Shown here piece after piece: positions 3,063 to 55,122 of a stretch of DNA of 64,000 nt; position 1 is the stretch's first letter; the number at the start of each line of letters is the position of its first letter. The translations under genes were made by a program, and so were the position numbers. The DNA is from Mobula hypostoma (taxonomy: Eukaryota): positions 93,622,001-93,686,000 of the forward strand of contig NC_086108.1 of NCBI RefSeq assembly GCF_963921235.1, written 5' to 3'. The notes below the pieces were generated by a model that ran no database searches, was not told the DNA's origin, and saw only the letters and a list, made by a program, of their open reading frames with translations.

Positions 3063-4156
3063 ATATTTAGAGATACAGTACAGTAACAGGCACCTCCTGC
3101 CCATGACCAATTAACCTACTAACCTGTCGGTCGGTCTTTGGAATTTGGGAGGAAAGCAGAGCAACTGGAGGAAACCCTCGCAGTCACAGGGAGAACGTAC
3201 GTACAGTGGTGGGAGTTGAACCCAGATCACTGGTGCTGCAAAGCATTACACTTGCCTCTACGCTATGTTCCTGGACCCAAAGTGCCACCGTTCCTTAAAA
3301 GGGGTTTCCAAACTGGAGTCCACAGACCCCTTGCTTAATAGTATTGGTCCATGGCATGAAAAAGTTTGGCTGAAGAGTAAAGCCCCAGCTCTGAAGGTAC
3401 CTGTAGGCCAGGGTCCTGTAGGAAGCCCATGACCTAAAGAACAGATGGTGGCTGCAGAGATTTCTTAAGGCTCAGCAACTCACTGATAGCTAGGATTCCA
3501 CATTGTTGAGGTCTTTCAGGGCCCAAACACTCAAGCCTCCCCCACCTGGGGCCAAGAATGGAGTAAACTCGTTTCTACTCTGGGATAGACTCTGTCTATC
3601 CTTCTTGTGCATCCCATCATTTTAATTTCTCAGAACTCTCCTCATCCAGAGAGGAACAGAATCCAAGTTTTTTTTTAAGACATGCAGCAGAATAACAGGT
3701 TGTTCCGATCCAATTGACCCACGCTGACCAATTATACCCATACAACCAATTAACCTACTAACCCATATGTCTTTGGAATGTGGGAGGAAACTGCAGGGAG
3801 AACTTACAAACTCCTTACAGACAGCAGCAGGAATTGAATCTGGAGCTTTGGCGCTGGAATGGTGTTACACTAACCGCTACGCTTTGTTCCGCCCAAATTT
3901 GTCCACCCTCTCCTTATTGCTTCTAGTCTTTATTACAGACAACATCTTGATGAACCTCCTCTGCACCCTCTACATCCTCCCTAGAATGGGGCAGTCAGTA
4001 TTGAACACAGTTCTACAAATGCAGCCTAGCCAGAAGCCCTGTGCCACCAGCTACCTCGCAGACTACTCACCTGGCCGCTTCGCCCTCAAAGGTTCAGAAA
4101 GGGAATTCCAGAGTTGAGACAGTCCATAGAAGAATGACATCTTGTAATCCATATAT

Positions 4157-4678
4157 TCATAGTCGTAGTCATAGTCATACTTTTTTGATCCCGAGGGAAA
4201 TTGGTTTTCGTTACCGTTGAACCATAAATAATTAAATAGTAATAAAACCATAAGTAATTATATAGTAATATGTAAATTATGCCAGGAAATAAGTCCAGGA
4301 CCAGCCTATTGGCTCAGGGTGTCTGACCCTCCAAGGGAGCAGTTGTAAAGTTTGGTGGCCACAGGCAGGAATGACTTCCTATGACGCTCTGTGTTGCATC
4401 TCGGTGGAATGAGTCTCTGGCTGAATGTACGCCTGTGCCCAACCAGTACATTATGTAGCGGAGACATTGTCCAAGATGGCATGCAACTTGGACAGCATCC
4501 TCTTTTCTGACACCACCGTCAGAGAGTCCAGTTCCATCCCCACAACATCAGTGGCCTTACGAATGAGTTTGTTGATTCTTTTGGTATCTGCTACCCTCAG
4601 CCTGCTGCTCCAGCACACAACAGCAAACATGATAGCACTGGCCACCACTGACTCATAGAACATCCTCGGCATCGTCCG
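4157..4678 (-). mobile_element. Rex1/Babar LINE 3' fragment with (ATGACT)n tail
   Basis: MFYESVVASAIMFAVVCW...NKLIRKA; near-identical copies at 32389 and 50779. Confidence 0.85.
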
Positions 4679-5662: not shown

Positions 5663-5860
5663 TTTGCTTATGGAGTCCCAGATCTATCCCTTAAGGACAT
5701 AGCCTGTAGCCAGTTCCTCCTTGACCGCTTCATCATCTTCTCCAGTTGGCGAGGGCTGCGTACGGTCCTGAACGGAATGTGTGTCCTCTCCGAGCAACGG
5801 CTCCAGAGAGTAGAGGATGCACTTTATGCAAACGTGGATTTCTTTAAGCTCTTTCAAGTG
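5663..5860 (+). CDS. ABCA4: ABCA4 exon (human exon 6 equivalent), exocytoplasmic domain 1
   Basis: cccag|TTT...GTG|gtagg; 198 nt; [27 protein letters not shown]...[13 protein letters not shown] matches ABCA4 FAHGVPDLALKDIACS...[12 protein letters not shown]. Confidence 0.96.
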
Positions 5861-8772: not shown

Positions 8773-9013
8773 TTCACTGCACAGGACAGTGTTCGGGATT
8801 TACAGCAGGTTGTTTACCCATTGTTTACTGAAGGCGGTCCTGCGTCATTCAGTCAGCTGATGGACCTGTTATCGAGTCTAATCTGTGGCTATCCTGAGAA
8901 AGGAGGATCCAGGGTTTTCTCTTTTAATTGGTATGAAGATAATAACTACAAGGCTTTCCTGGGAATTAATAACACAAAGAAAGAGTCTAAGTATACGTAT
9001 GATTATGCAACAA
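8773..9013 (+). CDS. ABCA4: ABCA4 exon 8 equivalent
   Basis: cacag|TTC...CAA|gtaagt; 241 nt; LICGYPEKGGSRVFSFNWYEDNNYKAFLGI. Confidence 0.97.
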
Positions 9014-20145: not shown

Positions 20146-20625
20146 GGTTTGGGTGGCAGGGTGAAGATAGGTCTCTACCAAAGGAGGTTTAAGGCGCTTT
20201 TTCCCTCTGCTAGCCTATAGGTCACTCTTGGAACTCACATCAAAGTTGCTGGTGAACGCAGCAGGCCAGGCAGCATCTCTAGGAAGAGGTACAGTTGACG
20301 TTTCCGGCCGAGACCCTTCAGGTCACTCTTGGGCTAGGTGTAGCACCTGCTTAGCCCCCTGGTCAGGGTCACATGAAGCGGTGAGAGCAGGGTCATATGA
20401 ACAACTGGTGTATATCACAAGACCTTGTGATGTAACCACTGACGCTAGGCAGGCAATCACTGAAGATTATTGATAATGGCTGGGGTCACCCATCTTGTAA
20501 AGACACTGCCCAGAAGAAGGCAATGGCAAACCACTTTTGAAGAAAAATCTGCTAAGAACAGTCCTGGTCATGGAAAGACCATGATCACCCATATCATATG
20601 ACATGGCACATATTAATGATGATGA
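20146..20625 (+). mobile_element. RTE/BovB-related non-autonomous element, interrupted by a Penelope fragment
   Basis: GAAGAAGGCAATGGCAAACCACT (Bov-A-like motif) and (GAT)n tail. Confidence 0.55.
20232..20319 (-). mobile_element. 88-bp Penelope pLTR insertion
   Basis: Perfect 13-bp TSD AGGTCACTCTTGG at 20219-20231 and 20320-20332. Confidence 0.85.
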
Positions 20626-21076: not shown

Positions 21077-21647
21077 AAACACAAAATAATCCGCAGATGC
21101 TGGGGTCAAAGCAACACTCACAACACGCTGGAGGAACTCAGCAGGTCGGGCAGCATCCGTGGAAAAGATCGGTCGACGTTTCGGGCCGGAACCATTCGTC
21201 AGGACTACTCAGGTTGGAGGAGCAACACCTCATATACCGTCTAGGTAGTCTCCAGCCCCTTGGTACGAACATAGAATTCTCCAACTTCCAGTAATTCCCT
21301 CCCCCTCCCTTCCCTTATCCCTATGTCACTCTGCCCCCTCCCCCAGCTGCCTACCTCCTCCCTCTTGGATCCTCCTCCTTCTACTACCCATTGTGTTTTC
21401 CCCTTTTCTTTCTTCACCTTTCCTGCCTATCACCTCCCTGCCTCCCTTCCCCCACCCCTTTATCTTTCCCCTTACTGGTTTTTCACCTGGAACCTACCAG
21501 CCTTCTCCTTCCCACCCTCCCCCCACCTTCTTTATAGGGCCTCTGCCCCTTCCCTCTACAGTCCTGACGAAGGGTTCCGGCCCAAAACGTCAACCAATCT
21601 TTTCCACGGCTGCTGCCCAACCTGCTGAGTTCCTCCAGCATGTTGTG
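21077..21647. mobile_element. Inverted-end Penelope-like element with GIY-YIG C-terminal remnant
   Basis: Perfect 14-bp TSD ACTGAATGCATTGT (21063-21076, 21648-21661); LRLEEQHLIYRLGSLQPLGTNIEFSNFQ; hammerheads at 21171-21206 (-) and 21560-21595 (+, GAAA mutated to AAAA). Confidence 0.9.
21171..21206 (-). ncRNA. Minimal hammerhead ribozyme motif
   Basis: Reverse complement AGTC-CTGACGA-ATGGTTCCGGCCC-GAAA-CGTC-GACC. Confidence 0.7.
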
Positions 21648-22271
21648 ACTGAATGCATTGTGTCTCCCTAACTCTTCTCAGGTGGTTATAATCAACAAAA
21701 CATTAAAAAATTAGTTCACTGTTTCACAACGACAAGTGATAATGAGAGAAATCTGCTTAACCTGTCTGTATCTTAGCTACACTTAATATATTGCCCTCTG
21801 TTAATCTATTAACAGGATAAGTGAATTGGTGGTTGATTCACAAGCAGTAAGCCCTGGTTCTCAACACATTGGTTCCCTTCAAATGAGCACAAGGATACCC
21901 TTCAACCTCAAGCATCCATGAACTGCTTGAACTCCTCTTGTCATTTGTCCCTCTCGGCTCAAGTGTATGTAACTTCTGCCTATTTGTCTGTAGAATACTC
22001 ATAACAATTTGCACTTGTAGATTATCTTTAATGTAGTAAGTGTTCCCAGGTGTTCCACAGGAGGGTTAGCAAGCCCCATCTGCCATCGAGTCATGTAGAC
22101 CAATACTAGTGCATACTGTATTTTCCAAAAGTTAAAATCAAGTAGGATGGAAGAAGTTTCTGTGATCTCCTTATCAGAGGAAGGAAAGGTGGGAGGTACA
22201 ATTAAAGGAAAGAATTCCAGAGTTTCAGGCTGCAGCAGCCGCCAGTGATGAACAACTAAAAGCCCTGCTAC

Positions 22272-25872: not shown

Positions 25873-26756
25873 AGTACTTCCCAAGATTTTCAGGCTTAAA
25901 TTCCTAAATTTCCAACATGTTGCTCACCATAAACAACACAAAGTTAGTCATTGATCATTATTAATATAAATCAACCAGCCTTGCTGAGAGAGGCTTTCTG
26001 GAGACATGACCTACGATTCAGAGAATATATCGTGATCTTAAACGTGTCCCAACTAAAAATTAAGGAGTTAACGAGATGAACCACAAACATTGAGTATCAG
26101 TTGAAAGTTCCACTCAGTACTGAGGTGAAAGGGCCTAGTGTGTAGTGTGTAGGCTCATCCTTGTGTATGTATATCAAGCAGTGGTAAACCCAGGCAATTG
26201 GACTTGCTGTGATGTCCAGAACATATTTCACCACTCAGCCGAAAGGCTTCTTCGGTGTATGTAGTTACTACCAGCCACCAAGTGATGCTTGTTGGGCACA
26301 AATTTACTATCTTGAGCTTAAAATCTAGAAGAAATTGATCATTTTCTTAATGTTTAGCTTACAGGAAGTCTAACTTGAAAAGCAAACACCTGCAGGTGCT
26401 GGAAACCTGAAATAAAAATAGAAAGTAACTCAGCCATCCAGTGGTATCTGTCGAGAAAGAAATGAAATTAAGCTATCAGGTTGATGAACTTCAGTTTGAA
26501 TTCATTATAAGGACATAATAAATGGAAGCAGAAGTAGGCTATTTGGCCCATCGAGCCTGCCCTATAAGTCAAAAAGATCATGGCTGATCAGTTCCACCTA
26601 CCTGCCTTTTCCCCATAACCCTTAATTTCCCTGCTTAGTAAAACTTACATAAATTATCATAAATGTGACAGTTTACATCTAATAAACTAGACATTGTATA
26701 TACCATGGTGAGGTAATAAAACACTTTGTTTGAGCCTGGGTTGTACGAAGACTCTA

Positions 26757-27066
26757 ACACAGACAAAATACTGGAGAAACTCAGCAGGTCGGGCAGCATC
26801 TATGGAAAAGAATAAAAGGTCGACATTTCAGGCCAACATACTTCATCAGGACTGGAAAGGAAAGGGGAGGAAGCCAGAATAAGCTTCCCTCCCTCACCAT
26901 CTTATTCTGGCTTTCTCCCCTTTCCTTTCCAGTCCTGATGAAGGGTCTCGGCCTGAAATATCGACTCTATATTCCCCTCCATAGATGCTACCTGACCTGC
27001 TGAGTTCCATCAGCATTTTGTGTGAGTTGCTCTGGATTTCCAGCATCTGCAGAATTCCTTCTGTTT
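26757..27066. mobile_element. Palindromic Penelope pLTR element
   Basis: Arms ~26757-26883 and 26901-27024; hammerhead motif on each arm; tail ends in TGTTT. Confidence 0.85.
26931..26966 (+). ncRNA. Minimal hammerhead motif (decayed stem III)
   Basis: AGTC-CTGATGA-AGGGTCTCGGCCT-GAAA-TATC-GACT. Confidence 0.6.
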
Positions 27067-27305
27067 TATTGTGTGAAAACTGATAAGGACAGTGTTTGAG
27101 AATCTAATTCTTGTAGTAATGAAGGAACTCTTCAACAGCAATGTGAGGGGAAGGAATGTAAACCAGAATGCTTGTCACCTGATATTAGCACAATTGTTAT
27201 TTACTTGCTTCTTACACTTTTAACTTTTGCTGCAATTTATCTGCTATACCTGCCCATTCCCTTTCCCACCCCTCCTGCCTGTTGACTCTTCTTCCCCACC
27301 CCAAG

Positions 27306-32388: not shown

Positions 32389-32952
32389 AGTCATAGTCAT
32401 ACTTTATTGATCCCGGGGGAAATTGGTTTTCGTTATAGTTGCACCATAAATAATTAAATATTAATAGAACCATAAATAGTTAAATAGTAATATGTAAATT
32501 ATGCCAGTAAATTATGAAATAAGTCCAGGACCACCCTATTGGCTCAGGGTGTCTGACCCTCCAAGGGAGGAGTTGTAAAAGTTTGATGGCCACAGGCAGG
32601 AATGACTTCCTATGACGCTCTGTGTTGCATCTTGGTGGAATGAGTCTCTGGCTGAATGTACTCCTGTGCCCAACCAGTACATTATGTAGTGGATGTGAGA
32701 CATTGTCCAAGATGGCATGCAACTTGGACAGCATCCTCTTTTCAGACACCACCATCAGAGAGTCCAGTTCCATCCCCACAACATCACTGGCCTTACCAAT
32801 GAGTTTGTTGATCCTGCTGGTGTCTGCTACCCTCAGCCTGCTGCCCCAGCACAAAACAGCAAACATGATCGCACTGGCCACCACAGACTCGTAGAACATC
32901 CTCAGCATCGTCCAGCAGATGTTAAAGGACCTCAGTCTCCTCAGAAAATAGA
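32389..32952 (-). mobile_element. Rex1/Babar LINE 3' fragment
   Basis: MLRMFYESVVASA...HRKSFLPVAIKL; same family as 4157 and 50779. Confidence 0.85.
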
Positions 32953-33614: not shown

Positions 33615-34860
33615 TATTTTTCCGCAACATCATTTAAAGTCTCAGAAAGAGAATAGTAAAAGTTTGCAATGTGTAGCAATGATTTGGATGAAATTGTAGA
33701 TGGGTAATTAGCAAGCATGCAGATGACGCCAAGACTGATTGTGCTGTGGACAGTATAAAGGATTATCAAAGAATACAGCGGGATGCAGATCAGTTACAGA
33801 TATGGGCTGAGAAGTAGCAGCTGGAGTTTAATCTAGGCAAGTGTTAGGGGTTGTACTTTGGGAGATCAAATGAAAAGAGAAAGTATACAATTAATGGAAG
33901 ACTCCCTAATAGCACTGAGGCACAGAGGGATCTTGGGTCCATGTCCATAGTTTACTGAAGTGGCCATGCAGGCGGGTATGGGGGTAAAGAAGGCCTATGG
34001 CAAGGTTCCCTTCATTGGTAGGGTTATCAAGTATAAAAGTAAGGTAGTCATGCTGTACCTGTACGAAACTTTAGTCAGACTGCACTTGGAGTATTGTGTG
34101 TTACAGGAAGGATGTGGAGACAATGGAGAGGGTGTAGAAGTGGCTTACTAAGATGCTGCCCGCAGTAGTGGACGTGAGCCATAAGGAAAGGTTGGACAAA
34201 CTTGGGTTGTTCTTCATTGAGAATCAGAGGCTGTGGAGAGACCTGATGTGTGTTTCTATAAATGACGAGAAGCGTAGATAGGGTAGGCAGCCTGAACCTA
34301 TTCCTCAGCGTAGAATGTCAAACATCAGAGGGCGTGTCTTTAAGGTTAGAGAAGGGAAGTTTAAAGGTGATGTGAGGAGCAAGTTTTTTTAAGCTGGGAG
34401 TGGTAGATGCCTGGACTAGGATAACAGTGGTTGTATTAGAATCAGACACACAGGTGCAGTTTGTGAGGCTTTTAGATAGACACATAAATATTTTGGAAAT
34501 GGAATTGTGTTACTATTGCCACACATACAAAGGTACAAAGGAAAGTTTGTCCTGTATATTGTTCGTGCGTTGAGGTATTACAAGGTAAGTCAATAACAGA
34601 GTGCAGAGTAATGTGTTAAAGTTATAGAGAAAGAGTAGTGCAGGTAGATGAGAAGGTACAAGGTCATACCAGTGCAGATTGTGAGGTCAAGAGTCCATCG
34701 AGGGAACCGTTCTGTAGTTTTATAACAGTGGAAATATGAAGGGAATGGAGGGATAGGGATGAGACAGCAGGAAGACATTTAATATAAATTGGCATCAAGA
34801 TCAGCACAACATAGTGGGCCGAATGGCCTGCTCAAGGTTGTACTGATATATATTCTAAAA
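33615..34860 (+). mobile_element. Decayed CR1 LINE (RT C-terminus to 3' UTR), interrupted by a Rex-type tail at ~34500-34730
   Basis: ADDAKT-like segment and LYLYETLVRLHLEYCV. Confidence 0.75.
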
Positions 34861-36084: not shown

Positions 36085-36302
36085 TAAACACAAGGGTTTT
36101 TGCTGACGCTGGAAATCTTGAGCAACGCACACGAAAAGCTGAAGGAACTCAGCAAGCTGGACGGCATCTATGGAGAGGAATAAACTGTCAGCGTTTCAGC
36201 TGAGATTCTTCATCAGCCAGATGAAGGGATGTTGGTTCAGTCCTTTACATAGATACTGACTGACCTGCTGAGTTCCTCCAGCACGTTGTGTGTGTTCCTC
36301 AC
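36085..36302. mobile_element. Palindromic Penelope pLTR element
   Basis: TSD GGCTATTTATCA / GGTTATTTATCA; arms join at decayed hammerhead cores (~36206). Confidence 0.75.
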
Positions 36303-42026: not shown

Positions 42027-42260
42027 AAGCAACACCCACAAAATGCTGGAGAAACGCATCAGTTCAGGCGTGCTCTATGGAAGTGAATAAACAGTCGACA
42101 TTTCAGGCTGAGACCCTTACTTGGGCCCCAAAGGAGGGTCTCGGCCCGAAACATTGACAGTTAATTACTTTCCATAGATGCTGCCTCACCTGTTGGAGTT
42201 TCTCCAGTATTTTGTGTGTGTTGCTTTGGATTTCCAGCATCTGCAGACTTTCTCCTGTTT
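42027..42260. mobile_element. Palindromic Penelope pLTR element
   Basis: TSD ATATTCATAATGTT / ATACTTATAATGTT (42013-42026, 42261-42274); arms meet at the hammerheads. Confidence 0.8.
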
Positions 42261-45602: not shown

Positions 45603-45790
45603 AAAACAAGAGAAAATCTGCAGATGATGGAAATCAAGGTAACACACACAAAATTCTGGAGGAACTCAGCAGGTCAGGCAGCGTCTATGGAAATGAACAA
45701 GCAGTCGACGTTTCGGGCTGAGACCCTTCTTCAGGACTGGAGAAAAGAGATAAGGTCAGAGTGAGAAGGTGGGGGGGAGGGGAGGGAGAC
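45603..45790 (-). mobile_element. Penelope pLTR copy with intact hammerhead
   Basis: Full tail, pLTR body and hammerhead at 45702-45739; an opposite-strand decayed copy lies at ~46375-46668. Confidence 0.8.
45702..45739 (-). ncRNA. Minimal type I hammerhead ribozyme motif
   Basis: Reverse complement reads CAGTC-CTGAAGA-AGGGTCTCAGCCC-GAAA-CGTC-GACTG, with a 5-bp stem I. Confidence 0.8.
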
Positions 45791-47939
45791 TTCACTCAAT
45801 AACTGCTATACAATAATAGAGACAAAGGGTCAAAATGGTCCCTTCGGCCCGTCTCATCCTGGGCATCCATGACGCCTATCTATACCGATCCAATCAGTCG
45901 GCATTAGGCTCCTATCTGTATATTTCTTCCCAATCCAAGTACCTGTCCAAACGCCCTTTAAATGTATTTGTCTCCACCATCTCCTCTGCCCACTCATTCT
46001 GTATAATAACTACCCTCTGACTGGAAAAACCTTCCCCCACAGATCTCATTTAATTTTCTCCCCTCTCACTTTAAACCTACAGTATGCCTCGCTTTAGACT
46101 CTCTTACCCCATGAAAAAGACTTAGATGATCCACCATATCCATGCCCCTCATAATCTTATAAACCTCTATAAGGTTTTTAAGGAGCTTACTATTCAGACG
46201 TCCCTCTTTCTTATCCAAGTCATTTGTAGGGTACCTATGAAATACCACAAAGGTCCCAGCATTAATACTGTATTACCCCACTGGTGACAGATGTCCAGTC
46301 AGAAAAGCAACCCTCTACCATTGCATTCTGTTTTCTATTACCAAACCAATTGTGGATCCAGTTTGGCAATGTGTCTTTCCCTCTCTCACCTTAGCTTCTT
46401 ACATGCCCCTCCCTCCCTCTGGTGCTTGCCCTCCTTCCCTTTCCTCTCTGGTCTTCCACCCTTTCCTATTAGATTCCCCCTTCTCCAGCCCTTTATCTCT
46501 CCCACCAATTGACTTCCCAGCTATTTACTTCACCCCTCCCCCTCTCTCAGTTTCACCAATCACCTGTCCCCTCCTACTTCTTCCTTCCCTCCCCCCACCT
46601 TCTTATTCTGACTTCTTCCCCCTTCCTTTCCAGTCCAGATGAAGGGTCTCGTTGCAAACCGTCGACTGGTAATCCCTTGCTGGAATCCATGTATGCCAGA
46701 TCCACTACTCTGCCTTCATCAGTTTTCTTCATTACTTCCTCAAAGATCCAGAGCAGGACTTTCCACGTATAAAACCATGTTGACTTCCACCAATCAGTCC
46801 CCATCGTTCCAAATGAACATAAATCCTGTCCCTGAAATGAGATTCAGCATTGCACTAAGTATGATTATGAAGACACGTAGTCCTCTTTTATTGTCATTTA
46901 GTAATGCATGCATTAAGAAATGATACATTACTTCCTCTGGTGTGATATCACAAAACACAGGACAAACCAAGACTGAAAAAACTGACAAAGCCACATAATT
47001 ATAACATATAGTTACAACAGTGCAACAATACCATAACTTGATGAAGAAGTCCCTGAGCACAGTAAAGTTTAAAGTTTCTCAAATGTCCCACATCTCACGC
47101 AGACGGGAGAAGGAAGAAAAACTCTCCCTGCCATGCCGACCACAATCCGACTCATCTGAAAACTTCGAGCTCTGATCAGCTCTCCGTCACCGAGTACTGA
47201 GCACTATCTCTGTCCAAACGATTCAACCTCTTTCTCGGTTGCCAAAAGCAGGCAACGCCAGGATTTTCAGGCCTACCCTCCAAAAGATTCCCGACCACAC
47301 AGTAACGACAGCAGCGAATGGGCGTTTCAGAAATTTCTCCAGATGTTCCTCTGTGCTTTCACGTCCATTCTCCATCAAATCAGAATTGTCCACGGCCCCT
47401 ATTTAACAGATACAATATCATTTTTCACCGGTTTGTTAAGTAAAAGATAACTTGGATTGTTGTAATAATGAGATTTATCCCTGGGATCAAACAATTTCAG
47501 ACTCTAACAAGTTTACCAAAACTTAAAAGGTCCAAGTAAGGAAAACAGGAAATTAATAACAAGCGTTTAAATAAAACCCTCTGTGCCCTTGTGTCATGCC
47601 AAAGCACCTTCACATAAATAATGAGAGGGAGATAAGGGACAACAGGAAAATACACTGTAAGTACGCAGTTTATTTATCTGTGTTGACATATGATCACATA
47701 ATGGAATTGAAATGAGTCACAATAAGTGACCTGTCATAGACAGGCAATGAATGAAGAGATACGCACTGCTGCTTAAAGCTGCACACTGATGTTGTTAAGA
47801 TTTATTATATGCTGCCCTAAAATCGTTAGCTGACATTTACAGCTGGAGCCGAAACTCGTATTTTCAAACCATTGAACTGAATTAAAATCCGGTGTTTCAG
47901 GAAAAAGCCAAATCTAAAGTAATTTTAATAGGCCAAACC

Positions 47940-50124: not shown

Positions 50125-50269
50125 AAACACGAGGAAATCTGCAGATGCTGGAATTTCAAGCAACACACATAAAAGTTGCTGGTCCTGACGAAGGGTTTCG
50201 GCCCGAAATGTCGACTGTACCTATTCCTAGAGATGCTGCCTGGCCTGCTGCGCTCACCAGCAAAGTTTA
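50125..50269. mobile_element. Short inverted Penelope pLTR element
   Basis: TSD TCTTAACGTCTGT / TCTTAATGTCTGT (50112-50124, 50270-50282). Confidence 0.85.
50182..50216 (+). ncRNA. Minimal hammerhead motif (slightly decayed)
   Basis: GTC-CTGACGA-AGGGTTTCGGCCC-GAAA-TGTC-GAC. Confidence 0.65.
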
Positions 50270-50778: not shown

Positions 50779-51290
50779 TAGTCATAGTCATAGTCATAAT
50801 CATACTTGATTGACCCCGGGGGAAATTGGTTTTCGTTACAGTTGAACCATAAATAATAAATAGTAATAGAACCATAAATAGTTAAATAGTAATATGTAAA
50901 TCATGCCAGTAAATTATGAAATAAATCCAGGACCAGCCTATTGGCTCAGGGTGTCTGACCCTCCAAGGGAGGAGTTGTAAAGTTTGATGGCCACAGGCAG
51001 GAATGACTTCCTATGACGCTCTGTGTTGCATCTCGGTGGAATGAGTCTCTGGCTGAATGTAATCCTGTGCCCACCCAGTACATTATGTAGTGGATGGGAG
51101 ACATTAACCAAGATGGCATGCAACTTAGACAGCATCCTCTTTTCAGACACCACCGTCAAAGAGTCCAGTTCCATCCCCACAACATCACTGGCCTTACGAA
51201 TGAGTTTGTTGATTCTGTTGGTGTCTGCTACCCTCAGCCTGCTGCCCCAGCACACAACAGCAAACATGATAGTGCTGGCCACCACAGACT
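50779..51290 (-). mobile_element. Rex1/Babar LINE 3' fragment next to the exon 20 acceptor region
   Basis: Open frame [13 protein letters not shown]...AIKLYNSS; (ATGACT)n tail. Confidence 0.88.
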
Positions 51291-51325
51291 GTCAGGTTTA
51301 ATAAACTTCTCTCTCTGTTTAATAG

Positions 51326-51457
51326 GTCAATGCTGATTGGGTTATTTCCACCCACATCTGGTACGGCATTTATTAACGGCAAGGACATCCGCACAGAAAT
51401 TGAAGCTATCCGACAGGACATCGGTGTATGCCCCCAGCACAACATCTTGTTCAATAA
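51326..51457 (+). CDS. ABCA4: ABCA4 exon 20 equivalent (NBD1, Q-loop)
   Basis: aatag|G...AA|gtaagc; 132 nt; [43 protein letters not shown]. Confidence 0.96.
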
Positions 51458-51675
51458 GTAAGCAGAATATCTCAACAGATCTGGATATACAGTTCTGGTC
51501 GGCCCACTGTAGGAAGGATGTTGAGGCTTTGGAGAGGATACAGAAGAGGTTTACCAGGATGCTGCCTGGTTTAGGGAGCATGTGCTATCACGAAAGGCTG
51601 GATAAACTTCAGGCAACATACATCAAAGTTGCTGGTGAACGCAGCAGGCCAAGCAGCATCTATAGGAAGAGGCGC

Positions 51676-51711
51676 AGTCGACGTTTCAGGCCGAGACCCT
51701 TCGTCAGGACT
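51676..51711 (-). ncRNA. Minimal type I hammerhead ribozyme motif
   Basis: Exact reverse complement of the 52946-52981 motif, in the left arm of the palindrome. Confidence 0.8.
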
Positions 51712-52945
51712 AACTGAAGGAAGAGTGAGTAAGGGATTTGAAAGCTGGAGGGGGAGGGTGAGATGCAAAATGATAGGAGAAGACAGGAGGGGGAGGGATA
51801 GAGCCGAGAGCTGGACAGGTGATAGGCAAAAGGGGATACGAGAGGATCATGGGACAGGAGGTCTGGGAAGAAAGACAAGGGGGGGGGGTGACCCAGAGGA
51901 TGGGCAAGAGGTATATTCAGAGGGACAGAGGGAGAAAAAGGAGAGTGAGAGAAAGAATGTGTGCATAAAAATGAGTAACAGATGGGGTACGAGGGGGAGG
52001 TGGGGCCTTAGCGGAAGTTAGAGAAGTCAATGTTCACGCCATCAGGTTGGAGGCTACCCAGACGGAATATAAGGTGTTGTTCCTCCAACCTGAGTGTGGC
52101 TTCATCTTTACAGTAGAGGAGGCCGTGGATAGACATGTCAGAATGGGAATGGGATGTGGAATTAAAATGTGTGGCCACTGGGAGATCCTGCTTTCTCTGG
52201 TGGACAGAGCGTAGATGTTCAGCAAAGCGGTCTCCCAGTCTGCGTCGGGTCTCACCAATATATAAAAGGCCACATCGGGAGCACCGGACGCAGTATATCA
52301 CCCCAGTCGACTCACAGGTGAAGTGATGCCTCACCTGGAAGGACCGTTTGGGGCCCTGAATGGTGAGACCCGACGCAGACTGGGAGACCGCTTTGCTGAA
52401 TATTGGTGAGACCCGACGCAGACTGGGAGACCGCTTTGCTGAACATCTACGCTCTGTCCGCCAGAGAAAGCAGGATCTCCCAGTGGCCACACATTTTAAT
52501 TCCACATCCCATTTCCATTCTGACATGTCTATCCACGGCCTCCTCTACTGTAAAGATGAAGCCACACTCAGGTTGGAGGAACAACACCTTATATTCCGTC
52601 TGGGTAGCCTCCAACCTGATGGCATGAACATTGACTTCTCTAACTTCCGCTAAGGCCCCACCTCCCCCTCGTACCCCATCTGTTACTCATTTTTATGCAC
52701 ACATTCTTTCTCTCACTCTCCTTTTTCTCCCTCTGTCCCTCTGAACATACCTCTTGCCCATCCTCTGGGTCACCCCCCCCTTGTCTTTCTTCCCGGACCT
52801 CCTGTCCCATGATCCTCTCGTATCCCCTTTTGCCTATCACCTGTCCAGCTCTCGGCTCTATCCCTCCCCCTCCTGTCCTCCTATCATTTTGCATCTCCCC
52901 CTCCCCCTCCAGCTTTCAAATCCCTTACTCACTCTTCCTTCAGTT

Positions 52946-52981
52946 AGTCCTGACGAAGGGTCTCGGCCTGAAACGTCGACT
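52946..52981 (+). ncRNA. Minimal type I hammerhead ribozyme motif
   Basis: AGTC-CTGACGA-AGGGTCTCGGCCT-GAAA-CGTC-GACT: stem I AGUC/GACU, both core boxes, stem II, GUC triplet. Confidence 0.8.
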
Positions 52982-55122
52982 GCGCCTCTTCCTATAGATG
53001 CTGCTTGGCCTGCTGCATTCACCAGCAATTTTGATGTATGTTGCTTGAATTTCCAGCATCTGCAGAATTCCTGTTGTTTGTGGATAAACTTCAGTTCTCT
53101 TCTCTGGAGCACCAGAGGCTGAGGGGGAGAACTGATAGAGCTTTACAAGATTATGAATGCTACAGATGCCACAGATAGAGTGGACAGAGAATATCTATAT
53201 CCCAGGGGCATTCAGCTCATCCTGTTCACGCTGGCATGATCTTCTACCTAGTCTCATCTACATTCACCTGGACCATATCCTTTCAAGCCCCTCTCTTCCA
53301 TGCACTTATCCAAATTCCTCTTAAAAATGTTACAATTGAATCCGTATCTGCCACTTGCACAGGCAGCACGTTCCACGCTCCCTGCACCCTCTGAGTGAAG
53401 AAGTTTCCCTTCAAATTCCCCTTAAGTGCTTCACCTTTCACCCTAAACCTATGACCTGTATTTCTAGTCTCACCTAACCTGAGGGGAAAAGCCAGCTTAC
53501 ATTCGTTCTATCTAAACCCCTCAACATTTTGTATACCTCTGTAAGAACACACCTTGGTCACCTCTGCTCCAGGAATTAAAGTCCTAACACATTCAACCTT
53601 TCCCTATAACTCAGGTCCTCAAGTTCCGGCAACATCTGTGTAAATAATTGTGAAGTTTAGTACAATGTAGTACCTTTTGAGAAGAAGAAATGGAAGGTCT
53701 CTTAGGACTTAGAAGGTGCTAGGTGCTGTAGAGGATGAATGGGAATCTGGAGTACAAATAAACCAATCAAACAAAGCTGCACCACAGGTAGCAATACCAA
53801 ATAGAAAGCAAGTTAAGAAATGGACATTTTTACTAGAGGGACAGATCCCAAATTAAACTTGCATCAGAGAGATTGGATATGGAGAGATATTTCTATAAAT
53901 AGGTTATTCTAGAATCAGAGGGCACAGTTTCAGAATAAATAGATATCCCTTTAGAACTGAGATGAGGAAGAAATTTCCACAGCAAGAAGATTCCACAGTG
54001 GTGAATCTGTGGAATGCATTGCCATGGAGGCCTGTGGAGGTAAAGCAACTTGTTGCATTTCAGGTAGATATTAATAGGTTCTCGATTGGCAAAAGGATTA
54101 AGGATTACAGGGAAATACACACAAAATGCTGGAGGAACTCAGCAGGCCAGGCAGCATCAATGGAAAAGAGAACAGTCGACGCTTTGGACCAAAACCCTTC
54201 AGCAGGGCTACAGGGTAAAGGTGGGAGAGTGGATGAAAAAAATCAGCCCTGATTGAATGGTGGAGTAGACTCAATGGGCCAAATATCAAACCTTAGCTGA
54301 GCCATACTTTTCAAGTGTTTCTCCTGATACCAGCATCAGCCATCTCTTGAGTCTCCACACGTGCACACAGATCTGATCACCACGTTATTAATGACATGAT
54401 CAGGAGACGATCGAGGGGATGGGGTGAAGATTTAAAATGATGGTTTCGAGTTTGGACAGACCATACATGTCAGGAAAAGATATACAGACTGGGTCTCCTC
54501 ACTGTCAAAAGAAAGCTGGTGGGAGATCTAACTGAGGTCTTTACAATAATGGAAGTTTATCATGACTGAGTACAGAGAAATTATATTTTCTTGAGAGGAA
54601 AAGAATAGTTAGAGACTCTTCAAGATAAAATAGTCGCCTTGAAATACAGTAGGGAAGCTTCGCCCAAAGGCCGGTGGGTATGTGAAACCTGCGACCATTG
54701 AGAATAGGAAGGAAGAGGCAGAAGGAAACAGAGGCTCCTGGTGACATATTTACAGAAGGAAATATTGGAGGTCTGAATGTAGCAAAAACACCAAGGTGGA
54801 ATTGTCAGCCCAAATGACTTCTTTTTCGAGCAGTCTATCTACATAATGCTTTGCCGTGGAGCCAACTATACGGCTTTCTGGGCAAAGAAGAAACTGAAGG
54901 AAATGTGAGGTAATGAAGTTTAGATTAAGTAATGTGAGTTAAAATTTTGGAGCCAGTTCATGTGGCAATGCTTCAGAAAAAAAGTCATATCAAAAACTTG
55001 ACCATTTGAACACATTTTTCAGGCTCAGAATCAGGTTTAATATCACTGGCAGATGTCATGAAAGTTGTTGTTATACAGCAGCAGTATATTGTAAAACATA
55101 ATAAAAAGTAAATTATAGTAAG

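Follow-up and report, generated by a model that had tools for sequence, protein, structure and literature searches.

How a near-perfect palindrome came to lie close behind an exon of the ABCA4 orthologue of the ray Mobula hypostoma, and whether it matters to the gene that holds it, are the questions raised by this locus. The window, as the whole 64-kb stretch of DNA analysed is called here, is best read as containing, in intron 20 of that gene, a two-armed insertion, now dead, of an endonuclease-bearing Penelope-like element (PLE) that is very abundant and probably of Neptune type, and a probability of roughly 0.88 is attached to this reading.

The exon concerned, 51326-51457, matches residues 973-1016 of human ABCA4, in which c.2919-3050 corresponds to Leu973-His1017 from the start of exon 20 (PMC7544654). 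On its own the ray exon scores slightly higher with ABCA1 than with ABCA4 (76.4 vs 71.2 bits); the upstream exons at 5663-5860 and 8773-9013 are clearly those of ABCA4 (81.9 bits without an ABCA1 match, and 97.7 bits vs 54.5 for ABCA1). Judged by protein similarity the host gene is the ABCA4 orthologue with the insertion in its intron 20, and from orthology it would be expected to be expressed in the retina. From the end of exon 20 to the left copy of the target-site duplication (TSD) is 155 nt, the distance downstream of this exon that had been given in the original prediction, and both splice sites of the exon lie outside the predicted RNA stem considered below. The parts of the locus are as follows.

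51326 to 51457, plus strand: counterpart of human ABCA4 exon 20 in the host gene; in-frame, 132 nt, in the first nucleotide-binding domain (splice scan, protein match)
51470 to 51612, plus strand: LINE relic, presumably CR1-like, left part of the insertion target (colinear with the relic at 34150-34280)
51599 to 51612, plus strand: left TSD copy, 14 bp (14/14)
51613 to 52364, minus strand: PLE copy 1, 5′-truncated, about 750 nt, with GIY-YIG and CCHH residues, stop, 3′ UTR and antisense hammerhead
51613 to 52261, minus strand: left palindrome arm, within copy 1 (arm alignment)
52262 to 52360, minus strand: spacer, in which copy 1 runs on upstream (N-terminal half of GIY-YIG); missing from copy 2 (ORF 52008-52544 minus; Pfam)
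52361 to 52403, plus strand: 43-nt templated duplicate at the head-to-head joint (repeat comparison, junction, family contigs)
52400 to 53044, plus strand: right arm, 5′-truncated PLE copy 2, with GIY-YIG C-terminal half, stop at 52651-52653 and 3′ UTR (ORFs, arm alignment)
52945 to 52982, plus strand: minimal type-I hammerhead motif, predicted to cut after 52977 (motif scan)
53045 to 53080, plus strand: 36-nt PLE tail, copy 2 only (arm alignment; the same tail stands on one arm of the window relics A-F)
53081 to 53094, plus strand: right TSD copy, followed by the remainder of the presumably CR1-like relic (14/14; target continuity)

The intronic element itself, 51613-53080, is 1468 nt long, and its arms of 649 and 645 nt are reverse complements of one another, with 637 of 645 aligned columns identical; they differ by eight substitutions and by two indels of 2 nt each (98.15% by blastn, gaps counted). 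The tail is on the right side only and has no mirror copy. All of this, together with the PLE coding sequence and tail found, bears out what had been proposed from the letters alone, namely a 1.47-kb palindromic Penelope element with near-perfect inverted arms and a one-sided 36-nt tail. Each arm had also been said to hold a GIY-YIG C-terminus, a 3′ UTR and a hammerhead, and here too there is agreement, as Pfam PF01541 (GIY-YIG) is matched over 52011-52358 on the minus strand and a minimal hammerhead core is present in both arms. The 138 nt between the arms had the appearance of a neutral loop, an interpretation that was rejected since they hold the continuation of copy 1 (to about 52364) and a 43-nt sequence duplicating the start of copy 2. 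By its sequence the element consists of two head-to-head copies rather than two arms around a loop, copy 1 terminating at the tail-less site and copy 2, tail included, spanning 52400-53080 on the plus strand. TGGT(G), shared between the two as a microhomology, marks the start of the duplicate and the end of copy 1; the duplicate finishes in the ATAT with which copy 2 begins. Contigs of the family depart from the window sequence at 52363-52365 and have tail-like letters before 51608, and these departure points fix where copy 1 was truncated, display the 4-5-nt microhomology of the joint and identify the tail as family sequence. A direct pLTR or partial tandem, which is optional in truncated PLE copies, is absent, the 43-nt repeat at the joint being the only direct duplicate.

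The TSD, TGGATAAACTTCAG, is identical at all 14 positions between 51599-51612 and 53081-53094, and so is as perfect as had been claimed; this pair scores 14 in a search where 150 random position pairs all stayed below 9. Both flanks are colinear across the TSD with an uninterrupted relic at 34150-34280 and so form one continuous target relic. Microhomology at the left junction amounts to 6 of 8 positions, is weak, and had no counterpart at the relics inspected by eye.

The match to PF01541 scores 24.0 bits (cut-off 22.6) and is followed by a stop codon, and the reading frame of the right arm alone yields no Pfam family. The CCHH motif, as defined for PLE endonucleases (PMC8557442), is present, with VIYCVRCSRCGLLYIG providing two cysteines between GIY and YIG, followed by the EH and HF histidines. 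Among 26 matches from 93 candidate proteins the best is to P0001, also from Mobula hypostoma, identical at 108 of 116 residues (93% over 116 aa), and proteins of Hypanus sabinus come after it. The relatives P0001, P0003 and P0017 have long reverse transcriptase (RT)-like regions upstream of the endonuclease, a part that the window copy has lost by truncation; with Pfam RVT_1, P0017 gives a hit short of the cut-off (E 0.0077) and P0001 none. Before its endonuclease, at a position just beyond the truncation point of the window copy, P0001 carries a CX4CxxC linker (CKRNKCYTC), a feature found in the nearest ray proteins generally, and a CX2-5CxxC linker is described as the mark of the Neptune and Nematis clades (PMC8557442). 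On these sequence features the element is an endonuclease-bearing PLE, probably of Neptune type. Fold-back DNA transposons and MITEs have symmetrical termini and are without retroelement coding or a tail; such an identity was ruled out by ends that differ by a 36-nt tail and arms that encode a piece of a PLE endonuclease.

The family is extremely abundant. Contigs at 90% or more on the left part of the locus number 171,577 in sequencing run X1 and 98,419 in run X5, keeping in mind that summed depth is not copy number and that run X1 may itself be the source of the window; the exon flank is covered by one contig, at depth 14.7, in X1 and is uncovered in X5 and X13. At 51673, 51745, 51806 and 52326 the letter present in the window makes up 26-54% of the depth in X1 and at most 2% in X5, which assigns the copy to a subfamily enriched in its own lineage.

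Nor does the layout stand alone. Profile search of the 64-kb window gave 20 matches, two of them this element, and the remainder were grouped, with the help of arm comparison and the hammerhead motif scan, into eight unpaired pieces and the following six two-armed relics.

2596 to 2740: relic A, no TSD above background
21077 to 21651: relic B, TSD 14/14
26755 to 27067: relic C, no TSD above background
36085 to 36302: relic D, TSD 11/12
42027 to 42259: relic E, TSD 13/15
50125 to 50269: relic F, older, in intron 19 and not part of the insertion, TSD 12/13

Every one of the six has outward-facing 3′ ends and a tail on exactly one arm, while arm lengths and joints differ from relic to relic. A TSD of 12-15 bp with a score of at least 9 flanks four of the six (0 of 150 random pairs), the locus ends for this search being hand-set with 14 nt of slack, and one of the unpaired pieces has a TSD of 13/13. 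In endonuclease-bearing PLEs the combination of an inverted truncated copy, a one-sided tail of 30-40 bp and a TSD is reported to be frequent (Craig et al. 2021, PMC8557442), and in Pen2a_Av of Adineta vaga (Arkhipova et al. 2013, PMC3846280) an inverted pLTR goes with a tail of 31 bp and a TSD of 9 bp. With the former the window element shares the inverted 5′-truncated copy at the 5′ end, the tail at one end, the hammerhead in the terminal repeat and the C-terminal GIY-YIG with CCHH; it differs in that both copies are truncated inside the endonuclease, and in lacking both a full ORF and a direct pLTR tandem. With Pen2a_Av and the Pen2 derivatives it has in common the inverted repeats, the one-sided tail, a single TSD (9-10 bp there) round the whole unit and a target that is another retroelement, whereas its 645-nt arms include coding sequence, its TSD is 14 bp, and its joint has a 43-nt templated duplicate where theirs has a short palindrome. 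The palindromic layout is a common, already published product of PLE integration. A literature search turned up no paper on PLEs of rays or on such a joint type, from which absence from print does not follow.

That the palindrome is a by-product of integration can be said with considerable assurance. Two-strand cleavage, two-site priming and the joining of early-stopped cDNAs through microhomology is a reasonably well-favored account of how this happened here, though held less firmly. The anatomy, the TSD, the continuity of the target, the microhomology of the joint and the recurrence within the window can be read from the letters, and the order of events at the locus would be reconstructed from them as follows. 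The GIY-YIG nuclease of the element would cut both strands of the target, 14 nt apart, and each free 3′ end would serve as a primer, with element RNA as template, the top-strand end starting at an inner site and giving copy 1 without a tail, the bottom-strand end starting at an outer site and giving copy 2 with the 36-nt tail. Both cDNAs would stop early, at about 750 nt (copy 1) and 680 nt (copy 2). The first would then anneal via the TGGT(G) microhomology at a CTCACCA site, copy about 40 nt, release and join the second, a short snap-back and re-annealing step that would leave the 43-nt duplicate, and fill-in would create the TSD. In vitro support for such priming comes from the Anolis Poseidon element PAc, which belongs to a family other than that of the window element. 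Frangieh et al. 2024 (PMC11167929) report that PAc cuts and extends both strands, with no difference between them, and that its reverse transcription has two start sites, one at either end of the tail; the two start sites fit the two ends seen here. Unlike PAc, of Penelope/Poseidon type, the element has relatives with the CX2-5CxxC linker of Neptune/Nematis; its target is not notably AT-rich, and its inner end matches the target at 6 of 8 positions, where PAc needed no match.

The other ways to make a palindrome, by copying it whole from the RNA of a palindromic source locus or by self-priming or fold-back of one strand, have some claim to attention, as self-priming on an antisense template has been proposed for head-to-head PLEs (PMC3846280), the 43-nt duplicate is itself evidence of a short snap-back event, and the same subfamily alleles occur in both arms. 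They are nonetheless unlikely here. Copy 1 has 103 nt that are missing from copy 2 and copy 2 has the tail that is missing from copy 1, so neither arm can have been copied simply from the other; had cDNA 1 folded back once, the tail would be missing, and had cDNA 2 done so, the spacer would be. The make-up of the spacer, a continuation of copy 1 plus a templated duplicate, thus favors two cDNAs primed on opposite strands over fold-back. Copying from a palindromic source would require the reverse transcriptase to traverse a 650-bp stem and halt exactly at the tail-less site, and the variation in arm lengths and joints among the six relics also speaks against it.

Once transcribed, the element should fold. 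The original prediction of a double-stranded stem of about 650 bp in the pre-mRNA is supported by the modeled fold of 51320-53120, which has 650 arm-to-arm pairs, and the further proposal that the stem would sequester the sense hammerhead is supported by the same model, in which 52945-52982 lies inside it. ABCA4 pre-mRNA probably forms, if the fold is a guide, a transient intronic stem of 650 bp that is removed with the intron. Intronic inverted Alus (PMC2533698) provide the analogy that makes A-to-I editing of it plausible. The stem may be edited, and the expectation is that its effect on the gene is most likely little. An editing footprint in the DNA of the arms was considered and rejected, as only one A>G and one T>C occur among the eight differences. 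In the putative RNA run, X9, exon 20 is without cover and the types of change are as in the DNA runs (A>G at 13 places in all four); since paralogous contigs swamp the locus, the contig runs are uninformative on editing, expression and polymorphism.

An alteration of ABCA4 splicing by the insertion, with exon 20 looped out or affected by a stem near its donor, is improbable. Loss of exon 20 from human ABCA4 is rated deleterious (PMC7544654). Relic F, in intron 19, can base-pair across the exon both with the left arm (82 nt, 89% complementary) and with the tail, and in minimum-energy folds its partner is the left arm as long as the right arm has yet to be made, and thereafter the tail; exon skipping in primates has been associated with inverted pairs on either side of the exon (Denisko et al. 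2026, PMC13019027). The net gain from pairing of F is, however, only 18-20 kcal/mol over competing folds. Of 16 exons checked (some exon starts being approximate and exon 18 not located), 5 are flanked by an inverted pair, within 3 kb on each side, some of these duplexes being stronger, and exon 20 already had such a pair before the insertion, F with 54127-54206. As for a stem near the donor, an Alu stem in a RABL5 minigene no longer had an effect when about 68 nt or more had been added to its 24-nt distance (Lev-Maor et al. 2008, PMC2533698), which places it about 90 nt from the exon; the stem here is 155 nt from the donor. Intronic inverted Alu pairs (PMC2533698, PMC13019027) resemble the present case in being two intronic inverted repeats able to pair, to be edited and sometimes to shift splicing; the window element differs in having been made in one event and in being longer, more perfect and not an Alu, and it lies beyond the exon distance that mattered for RABL5.

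The hammerhead was at the center of a more ambitious proposal, a self-silencing design: the antisense arm, whether retained or built in, would be there to lock up the sense hammerhead and to supply Dicer with substrate, thereby shielding the host pre-mRNA or curbing the family. The motif has a 5-bp stem I, CUGACGA, a 3-bp stem II and GAAAC-GUC, without helix III, and its mirror core is near 51675-51712 on the minus strand. It resembles the minimal hammerheads of metazoan PLEs in its type-I core, lack of helix III and palindromic 15.2-16.2 pair, and no difference between these (PMC4209133) and the predicted window motif was found. Rfam at the gathering score gives no match, hammerhead included, in the 64-kb window, and the isolated motif has a hammerhead fold of -6.3 kcal/mol (constrained) vs -11.9 kcal/mol for its free fold, so that the hammerhead is not the lowest-energy form. 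The burial of 52945-52982 in the predicted fold, the transcription of the antisense arm first and the siRNAs matching inverted regions of Penelope copies in transgenic Drosophila melanogaster (PMC3681739) speak for such a design. In the same paper, however, the siRNAs are judged unable to silence Penelope efficiently; a single minimal hammerhead is reported to give no detectable cleavage in vitro (Cervera and de la Peña 2014, PMC4209133), which leaves little for the antisense arm to sequester, and PAc hammerhead mutants insert unaltered (PMC11167929). Among the relics cover is inconsistent, the sense hammerhead region of F being uncovered and A and D having no hammerhead on the sense arm. The layout, moreover, arises whatever the host context (PMC8557442, PMC3846280) and is the usual PLE product, as in six of six relics, and a copy without RT has nothing to gain from silencing. 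The notion of a design is not supported and is very improbable. As for the suggestion that the DNA could be cruciform-prone, Alu inverted repeats cause less breakage and fork arrest in yeast once their spacer exceeds 8 bp (PMC8053094), and the spacer here is 103-138 nt, making a cruciform unlikely. A hairpin can form in single-stranded DNA (PMC10164571).

An assembly or library fold-back artefact is the least credible alternative of all, for though none of the listed contigs in four runs bridges the left junction and inverted PLE structures are known to trouble assemblies (PMC8557442), such an artefact would mirror the flank too, and against it stand the one-sided tail, the perfect TSD, the target relic continuing exactly across it, and eight arm substitutions that, with two indels besides, split 4/4 between the arms against the family majority (four being left-arm differences and the other four, which are outside the 40 of 48 variant places shown, being taken as right-arm).

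The arms differ by 0.62% per arm (95% range 0.27-1.2%), which at the epaulette shark rate of 7e-10 per generation (PMC10587355) would translate into millions of generations, a poor fit with a lineage-enriched subfamily. CpG decay (three of the eight changes), RT error or two templates may contribute to the divergence. The description of the element as young, then, holds relative to the other PLE relics in the window and does not extend to an absolute age, none of which is claimed.

The window element is a clean, well-preserved example of a published insertion pattern and as it stands is of little importance. Its joint has modest value as an in vivo example consistent with priming on both strands from two start sites, as observed in vitro. 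It would gain in importance only with RNA evidence that ABCA4 splicing is affected. The boldest version of that idea, that a lineage-specific palindrome and relic F clamp the in-frame, functionally essential exon 20 in two successive ways, by the left arm while transcription proceeds and by the tail once the stem is closed, with measurable skipping or circularization and a heavily edited duplex in ray photoreceptors, is a long shot; if true, it would be an inverted-Alu-like effect produced by Penelope elements. With the family so abundant in these rays, ready-made intronic hairpins must be common, and they could take the role that inverted Alus have in primates.

Across exon 20 of the ABCA4 orthologue (51326-51457), the new two-armed Penelope-like element of intron 20 (51613-53080) is predicted to be able to pair with relic F, the older two-armed relic of intron 19 (50125-50269). 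In folding, the predicted partners of relic F are first 51629-51710 in the left arm and later the 36-nt tail (53045-53080), and the computed folds give a net gain of 18-20 kcal/mol for the pairing. Nearer to exon 20 than the new element is a LINE-like 3′ fragment (50779-51290), probably Rex/Babar-like, ending about 35 nt short of the exon 20 acceptor; copies 91-95% identical lie in the same orientation at 4154-4677 and 32389-32913, and Pfam returned no family for the fragment.

Beyond relic F, five two-armed Penelope relics are present in the window:
2596-2740, two-armed relic, tail one-sided
21077-21651, two-armed relic, tail one-sided
26755-27067, two-armed relic, tail one-sided
36085-36302, two-armed relic, tail one-sided
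42027-42259, two-armed relic, tail one-sided

Their arms range from tail-only up to about 450 nt, and three of the five have target-site duplications (TSDs) of 12-15 bp. A further two-armed copy, the seventh and an interrupted one, may lie at 45603-46671, where 450 nt separate a tail-bearing minus-strand Penelope piece from one on the plus strand; a search for a TSD there found none. There is also an unpaired Penelope piece of 88 nt, without tail, at 20219-20332, flanked by a perfect 13-bp TSD and, at 93% to the new element's subfamily, close to it.

At the new element itself, the 3′ end of the target (51605-51612) and the would-be continuation of the cDNA into the tail (53045-53052) agree at 6/8 letters. 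The agreement may be due to chance, or to a short stretch of pairing between target and RNA where reverse transcription is proposed to start without the tail (the inner priming site). The sense 3′ UTR carries a strong polypyrimidine tract with CAG (52894-52912), possibly a cryptic acceptor that the predicted arm-to-arm RNA stem would hide. Five ray gene models (P0003, P0005, P0024, P0025 and P0026) bear host-gene names yet contain the element's Penelope coding sequence, and represent either exonised elements or annotation errors.
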